Part shown: piece by piece, positions 26,270-29,437 of the stretch
Numbering within the stretch: the first letter of the stretch is position 1
How the letters are laid out: each line of letters opens with the position of its first letter
NCBI GenBank assembly: GCA_934154785.1
Contig: CAKPGL010000001.1
Location: 366,477 to 430,476 of the forward strand
Reading direction: 5' to 3'
DNA: 64,000 bases
Source: an uncultured Bacilli bacterium
GTDB lineage: Bacteria > Bacillota_I > Bacilli_A > RF39 > UBA660
Notes under the pieces: model-generated
What the model was told of the DNA's origin: nothing
Seen by the model: the letters and a program-made list of their open reading frames with translations, nothing else
Database searches by the model: none
Translations under genes and position numbers: made by a program

Positions 26270-28036
26270 ATGGCTAAAATTGGACCTTTTATTAAAAGTA
26301 AAAATACCACTAATAAAATGATGCTTAATTTACTAGTATCTTTAATTCCAATTATAGTTTTTACGGTTTATAAAAATGGTGTTCTACCTTATCAAGCCGG
26401 TAAAATAGAATTTGTATATATTTTGTATCCTTTATTATTTATATTATTACCAGCACTAGTTTCATTCTTAATAGAAACTATATACGCAATAATATTTTTA
26501 AAGAAGAGAAATAAAGATATATTTAAGTATATTAAATCATCATATAGTTTCTTTCCTGGTTTGTTTTTGGGATTAATTCTTCCTATAAATATGCCTATTT
26601 GGATAGTATTACTAGGAGCAGTCATTGCATCACTTAGTAAGATGATATTTGGTGGATTTGGTAAAAATTGGTTTAATCCAGCCTTAGTAGGATATTTATT
26701 TATATTTATATTTTTTACTAGTTATTTTCAAATAAATGGAGGATATTTAAATAAGTTAGAGGTTGATACTATTAGTACTTCAACTCCTCTTACTAATTCT
26801 ATTGTTGTAGAGGGAATAGGAGATTATGATTCTTTAGTTAAACCTTATGGAAGTCTAGTAAATTTCTTTACTGGAATGATACCAGGTTCAATAGGAGAAA
26901 CAAGTACTTTACTTTGTTTAGTAGCGTTTATTTATTTAACAATATCAGGTGTAATTAAATGGAAAATACCTATTGTTTATGTATTAACTGTATTTTTTGC
27001 TACATTCTTAATTGGTAATATAAATAATTTAGGTATTTGGTATCCTTTATTTCAAATATTAAGTGGAGGCTTAATGTTTGGAGCGGTATTTATGGCAACT
27101 GATCCAGTAACTAGTCCTACTACGACACAAGGACAAATACTATATGGTTTATTCTTAGGAATACTTACTGTTGGTATTAGATACTTATCACCTTTACCTG
27201 AAGGAGTATTTATTAGTATTTTAGTAATGAATATATTTGTTAAAGTATTAGATACAATAGGTTATAAAGCTAAATTTGATTTTAGAGTATCATTACTTCC
27301 TTATATTGTAGTATGGATTCTTATAATTGGTTTAGGTTTCTATGTTGGAAATGATTACGCCAAAAAATCATCTTTAGTTGATAGTAACTTTAATATAGTA
27401 TCAAAAGAAACTAAAGGTAATAAAACAACTTATATTGTAACAGAGAAAGGTTATGTTGCTAATATCAAAGCAGAAGTAGTTATTAATAAAGAAAAAATAT
27501 TATCTTATAGGGTATTAGAACAAAGTGAATCATTCTATTATAAGATATATGATAGTAATTACTTAGATACATTAGTTAATAATCAATTTAGTTTAAAAGA
27601 TGTTGATACTGTAAGTGGCGCAACAGTTACTAGTAAGGCTTTAAAGAAATTGTTACAGAATGTACTTAAAGATTATAATAATTCTGATATACCAGACGAT
27701 GTAGAAGAAGAAAAAGATTTTGAAGTATTAAATATTGAAGACAATATAGATAATGTTATTTATAATGTTAGCAAAAAAAGTTTTGGTGGCAACTTAGAAC
27801 TTAAAATTACTTTTGTACATGATGTTATTGAAGAAATAACTATCGTAAATCAAAATGATTCTTATATGGGTTTAGTTATTGATGCTGATTTTATAAATAC
27901 ATTAATACGTAATCAACAAGATTTAGATAATGTTGATACTGTAAGTGGCGCAACAATTAGTTCAACAGCTATTAAAGATGCAGTTATAAAAACTATTGAA
28001 GCATATAATGCAAATAAACAAGAAGTTACAGAATAA
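26270..28036 (+). CDS. rnfD: RnfD/NqrB-family membrane subunit fused to two C-terminal FMN-binding (RnfG-like) domains
   Basis: FMATDPVTSP motif of RnfD/NqrB within a polytopic domain. The C-terminal domains have DTVSGATVTSKAL and DTVSGATISSTAI (the [S/T]GAT flavinylation motif). It starts 1 nt after the rnfC stop. Confidence 0.65.
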   Translation: MAKIGPFIKSKNTTNKMMLNLLVSLIPIIVFTVYKNGVLPYQAGKIEFVYILYPLLFILLPALVSFLIETIYAIIFLKKRNKDIFKYIKSSYSFFPGLFLGLILPINMPIWIVLLGAVIASLSKMIFGGFGKNWFNPALVGYLFIFIFFTSYFQINGGYLNKLEVDTISTSTPLTNSIVVEGIGDYDSLVKPYGSLVNFFTGMIPGSIGETSTLLCLVAFIYLTISGVIKWKIPIVYVLTVFFATFLIGNINNLGIWYPLFQILSGGLMFGAVFMATDPVTSPTTTQGQILYGLFLGILTVGIRYLSPLPEGVFISILVMNIFVKVLDTIGYKAKFDFRVSLLPYIVVWILIIGLGFYVGNDYAKKSSLVDSNFNIVSKETKGNKTTYIVTEKGYVANIKAEVVINKEKILSYRVLEQSESFYYKIYDSNYLDTLVNNQFSLKDVDTVSGATVTSKALKKLLQNVLKDYNNSDIPDDVEEEKDFEVLNIEDNIDNVIYNVSKKSFGGNLELKITFVHDVIEEITIVNQNDSYMGLVIDADFINTLIRNQQDLDNVDTVSGATISSTAIKDAVIKTIEAYNANKQEVTE

Positions 28037-28232
28037 AATAAAAATGATGATTAGAAAATAATGTTTGAACTGAATCCTAAAAGTTGGATAGTTTATAACA
28101 ATTTCTAATTATCATTTTTTTATAAATATTCTAAATTTTTTCTTGTATCTAGAACAAACGTTTAATATAATTTTGCACAGGGACATTTAATAAGTTGGGT
28201 GGAGCCAAACTTCAGTGAAGGGAGGCGATAAT

Positions 28233-28316
28233 ATGAACAAGAAAGATTTTTTAATTCTTTCTCAAGTAATTACTATCTTCCTTTTAATATTATTACTATT
28301 TATAGTTTTGATATAA
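28233..28316 (+). CDS. 27-aa hydrophobic peptide (hypothetical small membrane protein or toxin-like)
   Basis: ATG preceded by a GGGAGG RBS. MNKKDFLILSQVITIFLLILLLFIVLI. A strong hairpin lies immediately downstream. Confidence 0.3.
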   Translation: MNKKDFLILSQVITIFLLILLLFIVLI

Positions 28317-28324
28317 AAGAAAAT

Positions 28325-28348
28325 CCACCTAACCGCTAAGTTAGGTGG
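28325..28348. terminator. strong stem-loop, likely a bidirectional terminator (the T-rich flank is on the minus-strand side)
   Basis: ccacctaa-ccgctaag-ttaggtgg. A T-rich run follows on the minus strand. Confidence 0.45.
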
Positions 28349-28447
28349 AAACCAAAAACTTTTGGCAACACTCAACATGCACATTAAGTGTTCCTTTTAT
28401 TATATGCAAGTTTCCTTGACACATACATAATAACATATTTTTAGTTG

Positions 28448-28473
28448 ATTGTCAAAGAGTCTGTTCTAATTTT
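28448..28473. repeat. direct repeat copy 1 (attgtcaaagagtctgttctaatttt), just 3' of the KilA-N gene stop
   Basis: 24 of 26 positions match copy 2 at 29412..29437. On the minus strand it encodes a KLEQTL* pseudo-C-terminus. Confidence 0.7.
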
Positions 28474-29357
28474 TACAGTGGCAATTCTTGTTTAGTGTTA
28501 ACATCATTTTCAATATATTTTAGATTACTAAATGATTTATTATTTCTTAGTAATTCCATTTGTTTTCTAGCAATGTTATTTAATCTAACGAGCCTTTCAT
28601 TTTGTGGTATTTTCATTTCAATCAACTCTGCATTAATGTTTTCCAAATTATTTAATATTACTAAATGAAGTAGATCAGTATAGTCTCTGATGTTACTATT
28701 TTTGGACAATTCTGAATTATCTTTTCTCCATTCTTTAGCAGTAATACCAAATAAAGCAACATTTAAGACGTCTGCTTCTTCTGCATATATAAATTTTTTT
28801 TGTTCCTCTGTTAAAGTAGGAACAATTATATTTTTTATAGCATCAGTGTGAACTATGTAATTAACCTTTGATAAAATTCTATTGGCGTGCCAATCAATTT
28901 TATTTTGATATGCTTCATTTCTCTTTAACCTTTGAAATTCTTGAATAACATATAACTTAAATTCTGGGCTTAACCAACTAGCAAATTCAAATGCAATATC
29001 ACTTCTAGCATATGTTCCGCCGTTATTACCTGATTTAGAAATTATTCCAATAGCGTTTGTTTCCTTAATCCACTTTTGTGGCGAAATTTTAAATTTATTA
29101 CTGCCAGCTTCGTTTTGAAACGCGTCGAATTCGACACGTTTGAAATTTTCATTGTTAATACTTTCCCACAAGCCTAAATAGGAAATAACATCTTTATTTC
29201 TCATCCAATTTTGTATTGGATATCTAGGGTCGTCTTCATCAGCATATTTTGCCAAATCAGTAAGTGATATATATTCATTATTATTAATTCTTAAAACACC
29301 AATCTTTTGTTCTTTTACTTTAATTTCAGTTTTTATACTTTCTTTATTCATAGTCAC
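28473..29357 (-). CDS. KilA-N domain-containing protein (phage/mobile-element associated)
   Basis: N-terminal YISLTDLAKYADEDDPRYPIQNWMRNKDVISYLGLWE is typical of KilA-N/APSES-type DNA-binding domains. AAGGA RBS. Confidence 0.6.
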   Translation of the reverse strand: MTMNKESIKTEIKVKEQKIGVLRINNNEYISLTDLAKYADEDDPRYPIQNWMRNKDVISYLGLWESINNENFKRVEFDAFQNEAGSNKFKISPQKWIKETNAIGIISKSGNNGGTYARSDIAFEFASWLSPEFKLYVIQEFQRLKRNEAYQNKIDWHANRILSKVNYIVHTDAIKNIIVPTLTEEQKKFIYAEEADVLNVALFGITAKEWRKDNSELSKNSNIRDYTDLLHLVILNNLENINAELIEMKIPQNERLVRLNNIARKQMELLRNNKSFSNLKYIENDVNTKQELPL

Positions 29358-29411
29358 GTCCTTTCTTGTTTCTTAAGTTGAATAAGTTTTAAATTTTTTA
29401 ATTTTCAATTA

Positions 29412-29437
29412 ATTGTCAAAGTGTCTGTTCCAATTTT
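29412..29437. repeat. direct repeat copy 2 (attgtcaaagtgtctgttccaatttt), overlapping the last 7 codons and stop of the radical-SAM gene
   Basis: On the minus strand it encodes ...RKLEQTL*, the native C-terminus of the 29416..30357 gene. Confidence 0.7.

Follow-up and report, generated by a model that had tools for sequence, protein, structure and literature searches.

A stretch of 64,000 nucleotides from an uncultured Bacilli bacterium (contig CAKPGL010000001.1; this whole stretch is called the window throughout) carries, immediately behind a radical-SAM gene, a gene for a KilA-N domain protein that is bracketed by two 26-bp direct repeats. The arrangement is most readily explained as an insertion with long target duplication (ILTD) of one mobile gene of the PDC-S22 family, made without an integrase or transposase, an explanation that is held to be probable rather than secure. 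In the ancestor of the species, a 938-bp segment with this one mobile gene would have been inserted right behind the region of the radical-SAM stop codon. The event would have duplicated 26 bp of the target, namely the last six codons, the stop codon and 4 nt, leaving copy 2 as the end of the radical-SAM gene and moving copy 1 to the far side of the insert.

The repeat pair and the segment between its copies

The two copies, at 28448-28473 and 29412-29437, are identical at 24 of 26 positions. A search with the 26-mer, allowing up to 3 mismatches, found it in these two places only in the window, with 0 matches expected from 100 shuffles, and the 26-mer has no hairpin potential (folding z = +0.49). 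The repeat is thus no common terminator-like element of the window, a result that would have counted against an earlier reading made from the sequence only. That reading was right in the positions and match count of the repeats and in taking copy 2 for the true end of the radical-SAM gene, since it encodes the close of the ...GRKLEQTL* of the 313-amino-acid (aa) open reading frame (ORF). It was also right that copy 1 forms a pseudo-terminus, but this is not the same heptapeptide plus stop; it is a hexapeptide plus stop (TAA-KLEQTL*), with the stop codon of the KilA-N gene in place of the Arg codon and base 28473, the last of copy 1, serving as the third base of that stop codon. The 962 bp that it placed between the repeats are in fact 938 bp, the start-to-start distance being 964 bp. 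The KilA-N gene, with its own ribosome-binding site (RBS; GAAAGGA), is, as it had stated, the sole gene between the copies; the segment contains no second gene and no terminal inverted repeats.

A repeat search extended the pair to 37 nt (28437-28473 and 29401-29437, 32/37 matches). The three differences in the additional 11 nt are fixed across all strains, and the 26 bp are therefore regarded as the real repeat unit; the extension is probably not part of the duplication and its match may be due to chance. The two mismatches within the 26-mer behave differently from those of the extension. Both are synonymous in copy 2, and strain comparison showed them to be within-species polymorphisms, the same two alleles segregating in either copy. 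In the conspecific strains L082-84 and L086 both copies are the same 26-mer (AAAATTGGAACAGACTCTTTGACAAT in gene orientation). Since the mismatches are polymorphisms and some strains are 26/26 identical, the duplication was most likely perfect when it was formed, with exchange between the copies later. Descent of the mismatches from separate attP and attB alleles was considered and dropped, the polymorphisms being common to both copies. Strain L099 has the TTA allele; in the remaining strains this allele was confined to copy 1.

It could be argued that the repeat arose by chance or has a function, as a promoter -35 region or another regulatory site, that is unrelated to the arrival of the gene. 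The 26-mer does carry TTGACA, the motif TGtTATTAT lies 17 nt past copy 1, and the sequence is AT-rich. There is no matching -10 element at copy 2, however, and neither the 26/26 identity in several strains nor the absence of expected matches in shuffled sequence fits a chance origin. Furthermore, the boundaries of the repeat are those of the lineage-specific segment, and relatives are bracketed by repeats of unrelated sequence (see below). Such an origin is very improbable.

The product of the gene matches the Pfam KilA-N profile (6e-21; 74.7 bits against a gathering cut-off of 23.8), the PADLOC profile PDC-S22 over its full length (1e-118; residues 7-279 against profile positions 4-275 of 281) and PHROG 2657 (2e-47); no match was obtained in NCBIfam or in a profile search of the PDB. 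The 292-aa form that starts at ATG is present in protein records and the exact 294-aa product of the GTG start is absent from them. The ORF ends at the native C-terminus of the family, ...KQELP[LIM]*. An AlphaFold (AF2) model with a predicted local distance difference test score of 78 has a confident KilA-N DNA-binding domain at the N-terminus, followed by a helical C-terminal half. Comparison with the PDB by Foldseek gave only weak matches to DNA-binding proteins (DdrC and Mbp1/APSES) and no nuclease or recombinase fold. Because the model has no catalytic fold, the protein is probably the selected cargo of the insertion and not its catalyst; the notion that it acts as its own transposase or nuclease was dropped on the same grounds, together with the empty PDB and NCBIfam searches.

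The PDC families of PADLOC are candidates drawn from defence-island enrichment, and the window gene is accordingly classed only as a candidate single-gene anti-phage defence protein. Genomic context supports the candidate role, as neighbours of the family include nSTAND3, an hsdM-like gene and cassettes of Abi_2 and MazF-like genes. In strains L082-L086 an indel in a run of eight A residues within the gene leads to a stop at aa 196, and two strains also have a stop at aa 15. These frameshifts could reflect decay of the candidate defence gene or its phase variation through the homopolymer.

The radical-SAM locus in related genomes

Relatives of the radical-SAM protein carry the NCBI family name TIGR01212, and matches to it came only from metagenome-assembled genomes of uncultured gut Bacilli or 'Tenericutes'. 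The conserved part of the protein stops at ...YQG; the tail beyond this point differs in every species, RKLEQTL being peculiar to the species of the window. Among the 80 closest genomes (73-86% protein identity), not one carries a homologue of the KilA-N gene up to 6 kb away from the radical-SAM gene. In L001, L103 and L104, whose radical-SAM proteins are 86-87% identical to that of the window, the order is DcuC, radical-SAM, a convergent gene of 173-178 aa, RnfDG and RnfC, and the KilA-N gene and the KLEQTL tail are both absent. All conspecific contigs (98.5-100% nucleotide identity) that extend past the radical-SAM gene have the KilA-N gene between the repeats; the contigs of L099 and L100 end within an insertion sequence (IS) before reaching the insertion site. 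The strain diversity of the KilA-N gene (99.1-100%) equals that of the flanking genes. Its absence from the 80 relatives, its presence in all informative conspecific contigs and its flank-like diversity together indicate that the insertion is lineage-specific, fixed in the species and vertically inherited since.

An empty site in the species of the window was sought by look-ups of the exact radical-SAM protein, its cluster variants (P0248, P0251 and P0254) and RnfDG, and was not found; only filled, IS-disrupted or more distant syntenic sites were recovered. In a collection of 5.8 billion proteins there is a gap between the radical-SAM cluster of the window (at least 95% identity) and proteins of 87%.

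The features of the locus are listed in the table. Between the radical-SAM and KilA-N genes no promoter-like or terminator-like site was found, so the KilA-N gene is probably transcribed by read-through from the radical-SAM gene. A near-consensus promoter on the minus strand (28455..28427; TTGACA, 17 nt, TG-n-TATTAT, 11/12) begins within repeat copy 1 and points to the terminator-like hairpin. It could yield a transcript of ~80-100 nt antisense to the small ORF there; no Rfam match was obtained for the predicted transcript. The spacer at 28.0-28.45 kb likewise had no match to an RNA element in Rfam at E up to 1. The spacer holds a 27-aa ORF (28234-28316, plus strand) with a strong RBS that resembles the N-terminal signal-anchor of the 173-178-aa gene, and it is probably, from this resemblance, a remnant of the gene seen in L001, L103 and L104. 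Strain L087 is without ~28204-28336. Further along, the fused RnfD-RnfG-type gene (26270-28036) has an 80-nt internal repeat (27550-27629 and 27880-27959, 75% identity) that corresponds to two FMN_bind modules.

The tail of the radical-SAM gene is also a hot spot for insertion, the same few bases being interrupted in conspecific strains and in a sister lineage. An element with an ISLre2/UPF0236 transposase occupies the tail in conspecific strains (L099:5931-6869 and L100:5157-5431), and an IS30-like element (HTH_38 and rve domains) does so in the sister lineage (L101:1044-2557 and L102:1110-1165).

Table. Coordinates of features at the radical-SAM/KilA-N locus of the window
Feature	Position	Strand	Remarks
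Target gene, TIGR01212-type radical-SAM protein, 313 aa	29416..30357	-	Pfam Radical_SAM and Radical_SAM_C
Repeat copy 2 (proximal)	29412..29437	-	3' end of radical-SAM gene: codons K-L-E-Q-T-L, stop and 4 nt beyond
Inserted segment, 938 bp	28474..29411	-	60-nt leader with RBS (GAAAGGA) and KilA-N ORF to its native stop
KilA-N / PDC-S22 gene	28473..29351	-	292 aa from ATG; 294 aa from upstream GTG at 29357
A8/T8 homopolymer within KilA-N gene	28794..28801	-	1-nt frameshift indel in 5/9 conspecific strains
Repeat copy 1 (distal)	28448..28473	-	Displaced pseudo 3' end, duplicate of copy 2
Possible degenerate extension of repeat	28437..28447	-	8/11 matches to 29401-29411; probably not part of the duplication
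Terminator-like hairpin	28324..28349		Downstream of insertion; ends both the radical-SAM/KilA-N transcription unit and the convergent small ORF

Bracketed homologues in other genomes and in phages

More than 8000 homologues of the KilA-N protein were scored, the top 120 all being at least 82% identical to it. The contexts of the top homologues differ and comprise mobilizable elements, phage satellites and prophages, in agreement with the earlier assignment of the gene to a phage or mobile-element type. They include an element of large serine recombinase, Mob_Pre and KilA-N genes (L090-92), variable islands that end in the KilA-N gene (L185-193, those of L192-193 with a serine recombinase and Mob_Pre), loci with Bro-N neighbours (L093-98), streptococcal satellite phages, in which the gene is next to the integrase end, and Staphylococcus phage EW. 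The DNA homology between the window and the other contexts is confined to the ORF; it starts at the RBS and breaks off ~25 nt short of the stop codon (~29366/29352 to ~28498), and the mobile unit is of ORF size.

Approximately 176 homologue loci, taken from metagenomes, IMG/VR and exact-protein look-ups, were scanned for bracketing direct repeats, and about 12 independent bracketed cases were found. Their repeats are 26-160 bp long, mutually unrelated and often consist of a gene end or terminator. In L194, the closest non-self relative (86% aa identity), perfect repeats of 57/57 bp surround the KilA-N gene; the downstream copy is the true 3' end (YFEDDALIESHIKKYEK* plus 4 nt) of a tRNA-synthetase gene, and the KilA-N gene is antisense to this target gene. 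Repeats were also found in L157 (49/49), L171 (39/39, the terminator behind a tRNA gene), L123 (39/39), L162 (53/53), L151 (75/76), L268 (34/35), L244/245 (30/30), L258 (~110 bp) and L139 (142/160, the 5' end of an hsdM-like gene). The bracketed inserts measure 846-1444 bp and hold the KilA-N gene alone, with an additional short Bro-N-like ORF in L258; six of them have a downstream repeat that touches the stop codon or extends over it. A comparison of the ends of the inserts revealed no common sequence, no inverted repeats and no IS remnants. As a control, the same method was applied to the remaining 200-400-aa ORFs of these loci. Only 3 of 393 were bracketed, and two of these three are cassettes of a single phage array; an earlier control for brackets had returned tandem paralogues only.

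Brackets at two loci were set aside as ambiguous: that of L177, which involves repeats resembling repetitive extragenic palindromic (REP) sequences, and that of L121/L122, a hairpin that co-varies in both copies while the downstream flanks differ. Of eight family repeats tested, five fold significantly; the window repeat and two others do not, and a general targeting of hairpins or terminators was dropped for this reason. Two of the loci have further peculiarities. Just upstream of the KilA-N insertion in L194 (3601-3768) a 35-bp unit (ACTTTTTTAATTTCCTGATTATGACCGGAATCGCC) is present in four tandem copies. In L139 (1345-2741) the KilA-N homologue stands between an hsdM-like gene of full length and a truncated 5' fragment of such a gene that has an in-frame TAG. 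The two are 89% identical over 160 bp and by eye differ mostly at third codon positions; this suggests that the pieces come from different alleles, and hence recombination between restriction-modification (RM) loci rather than a fresh duplication.

The sequence-only reading had described the arrangement in the window as a site-specific mini-insertion with reconstitution of the 3' end of the gene. The lineage-specific gain of a mobile gene with the gene end left intact agrees with the present results, but the site-specific, att-like part does not: the window has no recombinase, conserved ends are lacking, and the family repeats, being different in sequence and length, share no integrase core site. 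That no integrase remains, as it had said, agrees with the ORF list of the window and with tblastn searches of it, in which recombinases of both types (tyrosine and serine), a relaxase and the transposases of IS30 and ISLre2 gave no match. A larger element that has decayed, which it had also offered, is unlikely given that every bracketed case is confined to this one gene.

On a less probable reading, the segment is the remnant, or a derivative mobilised in trans after the manner of a cis-mobilizable element (CIME), of a site-specific element that has lost its integrase and everything else, with the 26-mers as attL and attR. Integrases classically insert elements at the 3' ends of genes and restore the gene in doing so, and the homologues at the edge of serine recombinase and Mob_Pre elements (L090-92 and L192-193) and beside the integrase end of the streptococcal satellite phages would be in keeping with it. 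The insert, however, is one ORF plus 60 nt that ends exactly at the native stop; the ~12 bracketed cases have no common core, and no integrated element was found at the radical-SAM 3' end in the 80 related genomes. Large serine recombinases are not known to leave long direct repeats. This origin is considered unlikely.

Alternatively, a transposase that makes long target duplications, of IS30 type like that of IS1630 or of ISLre2/IS1634 type, could have been responsible, with the KilA-N gene as passenger or as replacement of the IS. IS1630, a member of the IS30 family from Mycoplasma fermentans, is said to duplicate inverted repeats in many cases and reportedly has a DDE transposase and terminal inverted repeats. 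Its target duplications are 19-26 bp long (PMC2853133), so that the 26 bp of the window fall at the upper end of its range. The likeness extends to the long and variable duplications, to hairpins or terminators as favoured sites in several cases of the family, to Mollicute-related hosts, and to the radical-SAM tail, which is hit both by the IS30-like element of the sister lineage (L101/L102) and by the ISLre2/UPF0236 element (L099/L100). The repeats of up to 110-160 bp lie far beyond the IS30 range, however, and the window 26-mer forms no hairpin. Furthermore, the inserts contain neither inverted repeats nor IS remnants, and no transposase homologue was found in the window; the terminal inverted repeats and the fixed short duplication that mark a DDE insertion sequence or a non-autonomous transposon are both missing. 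A transposase origin is likewise given a low probability.

The phage relatives allowed filled sites to be compared with empty ones. For the phage family of L244/245, IMG/VR was searched with a 24-mer from the repeat; in this family the repeat opens the C-terminal tail of an XRE-type repressor gene. At least 15 IMG/VR contigs contain the repeat once, its left and right flanks being contiguous (ten are recorded: L283, L287, L288, L295-297, L302, L308, L309 and L311), while L242, L305 and L306 have two copies, 972 bp apart, with the KilA-N gene between them. Since the empty sites have one copy and the filled sites two, comparison of the contigs indicates that duplication upon insertion is real in this phage family. 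In L299 and L245 the repressor tail recurs behind each gene of an array (Abi_2, PemK/MazF-like and other genes), giving 3-4 repeat copies, and a second phage family, L268/L315, has a reused boundary sequence of the same kind. These comparisons point to repeats that support the building of arrays and to a route that extends beyond KilA-N genes. As an observation in its own right, arrays downstream of an XRE-type repressor were seen in IMG/VR at L299:10399-13340, L245:4860-8200, L258:4470-5965 and L312:1640-2640, each of their genes (KilA-N/PDC-S22, Abi_2, PemK/MazF-like and Bro-N) being followed by a ~110-bp copy of the repressor 3' tail. They resemble integron-like or PeSL-like arrays of defence cassettes without an integrase (PeSL, promoter-early stem-loop).

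The arrays bear on another possibility, that no duplication was made de novo in the window. A bracketed cassette could have been acquired ready-made from a close donor by homologous recombination, either by linear 'duplication-insertion' or by Campbell-type integration of a circle carrying the gene and one 26-mer; or a local tandem duplication could have been filled later by gene replacement. The alleles common to both copies at the two polymorphic positions suggest recombination or gene conversion between the copies, the phage arrays with 3-4 repeat copies between different defence genes indicate that repeat-mediated homologous exchange operates, and the PeSL cassettes of T4-type phages, with their mini-circles, provide a precedent. 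On the other hand, a stretch of 26 bp is very short for RecA-dependent recombination, the donor would be confined to the same lineage, as the radical-SAM tail is species-specific, and the origin of the duplication would only be shifted to the donor. A ready-made cassette is rather unlikely to account for the window, and it is compatible with the spread phase of the ILTD explanation set out below rather than excluding it.

Mechanism, comparison with known systems and significance

The molecular mechanism that we infer for the insertion has two stages. In the first, a linear DNA fragment would be captured de novo at a staggered break or gap, and fill-in would copy the 26-160 nt between the nicks. 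In the second, the cassette, now bracketed by repeats, would spread, be lost or build arrays through homologous recombination between the copies, by way of linear 'duplication-insertion' or of excised circles. The second stage would explain the spread, the loss, the arrays and the sharing of alleles between copies among strains. The survival of insertions at gene ends and terminators would be explained by selection.

Several points weigh against the ILTD explanation. The empty site of this locus was not found, and the single copy before insertion is deduced for the window; no lineage of 89% to 98% nucleotide identity is on record, and the nearest other lineages have a different radical-SAM tail or an IS at the site. 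Some of the brackets may be of other origin, such as that of L177 in its REP-like repeats and the hairpin of L121/L122, which is perhaps an operator. The phage repeats could be boundary or terminator sequences that are reused in homologous exchange without de novo duplication. Capture at a staggered break, although the preferred mechanism, is a conjecture. Finally, the 26-bp repeat is below the 30-bp threshold of Furuta et al. and within the range of IS1630. Its core of 26 bp (37 bp with the doubtful extension) is longer than classical duplications of <10 bp.

ILTD was described for RM genes in Helicobacter pylori (Nobusato et al. 2000, Gene 259:99) and later for type I-IV RM systems of several phyla (Furuta et al. 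2010, NAR 38:2428, PMC2853133). The published examples have repeats of 46-47 bp and more and no mobility genes, with >30 bp as the operational threshold, and their authors conjectured a part for breakage of DNA by the restriction enzyme, for amplification through the repeats and for a virus-like cycle (PMC2853133). The window event shares with them a small chromosomal gene unit between long, variable direct repeats, without transposase, integrase or conserved ends, and a cargo of the defence type, here a candidate. No mobility gene is present in or next to the insert, and the 26-mer is not dispersed within the window. In ILTD the repeats correspond to a single-copy target in genomes without the insert. 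Here this pattern of one and two copies was seen for the phage relatives, and the relatives at 86-87% have neither the gene nor the tail. The event differs from the known examples in that the cargo is a single KilA-N/PDC-S22 gene without a recognisable nuclease and not an RM system, in its repeat length, in its host, an uncultured gut Bacilli bacterium, and in that the pattern is also found in phage genomes as multi-cassette arrays. Because the cargo has no recognisable nuclease, the idea of breakage by a restriction enzyme is weakened. As read here, the event is a further instance of the known ILTD class, with a new cargo and a recurrent, family-wide pattern. A literature search found no report that ties ILTD to KilA-N or PDC-S22 genes.

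Other systems resemble it in part. Like the integrase-mediated 3'-end integration of prophages, integrative and conjugative elements (ICEs), integrative and mobilizable elements (IMEs) and CIMEs, it has repeats that overlap a gene 3' end and a reconstituted gene, and like a CIME the small unit could in principle be mobilised in trans. Unlike prophages, ICEs and IMEs, it has no integrase, common core or conserved ends, and its family has repeats of up to 160 bp. The nearest analogue of the phage arrays is the PeSL cassettes of T4-type phages (Arbiol et al. 2010, PMC2839356). As in PeSL and integron cassettes, single ORFs are bracketed by repeated boundaries and form arrays and possibly circles, a likeness clearest in the phage relatives with their order of repressor tail, cassette, tail, cassette. 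The boundary, however, is a duplicated piece of the local target and not a promoter/terminator motif or attC, and there is no integron integrase. Integron cassettes are recognised by an attC with R and L boxes and by an integrase with attI; the 26-mer is unfolded and the window has no integrase. BstA, a prophage-encoded abortive-infection protein, has a KilA-N-like N-terminus (PMC8585504, 2021). It resembles the window protein in layout, both having a KilA-N N-terminus and a second domain and being borne on mobile elements or prophages, often downstream of a repressor. The window protein falls in the candidate family PDC-S22, and no aba-like immunity element was identified with it.

A wider proposal is made more tentatively and with rather less than even confidence: that cassettes with a single candidate defence gene (PDC-S22/KilA-N or, in phages, also Abi_2 or a MazF-like gene) spread without a recombinase in Firmicutes-type bacteria and phages, duplicating 26-160 bp at gene ends or terminators and leaving the neighbour gene undamaged. 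Defence genes move fast, yet many of them are genomic 'orphans' without visible mobility machinery. If the proposal is true, ILTD would be neither peculiar to RM systems nor dependent on cleavage by a restriction enzyme, and it would constitute an unrecognised major mode of defence-gene mobility. The candidate enzymologies would then be staggered-break capture, off-target integration of the Cas1/casposase kind, and duplication-insertion mediated by a single-strand annealing protein. Repeats of this kind should, as a caution for annotation, not be called att sites. The PDC-S22 family, with its >8000 homologues, fresh perfect duplications and matched empty sites, would offer a system in which the mechanism can be worked out.

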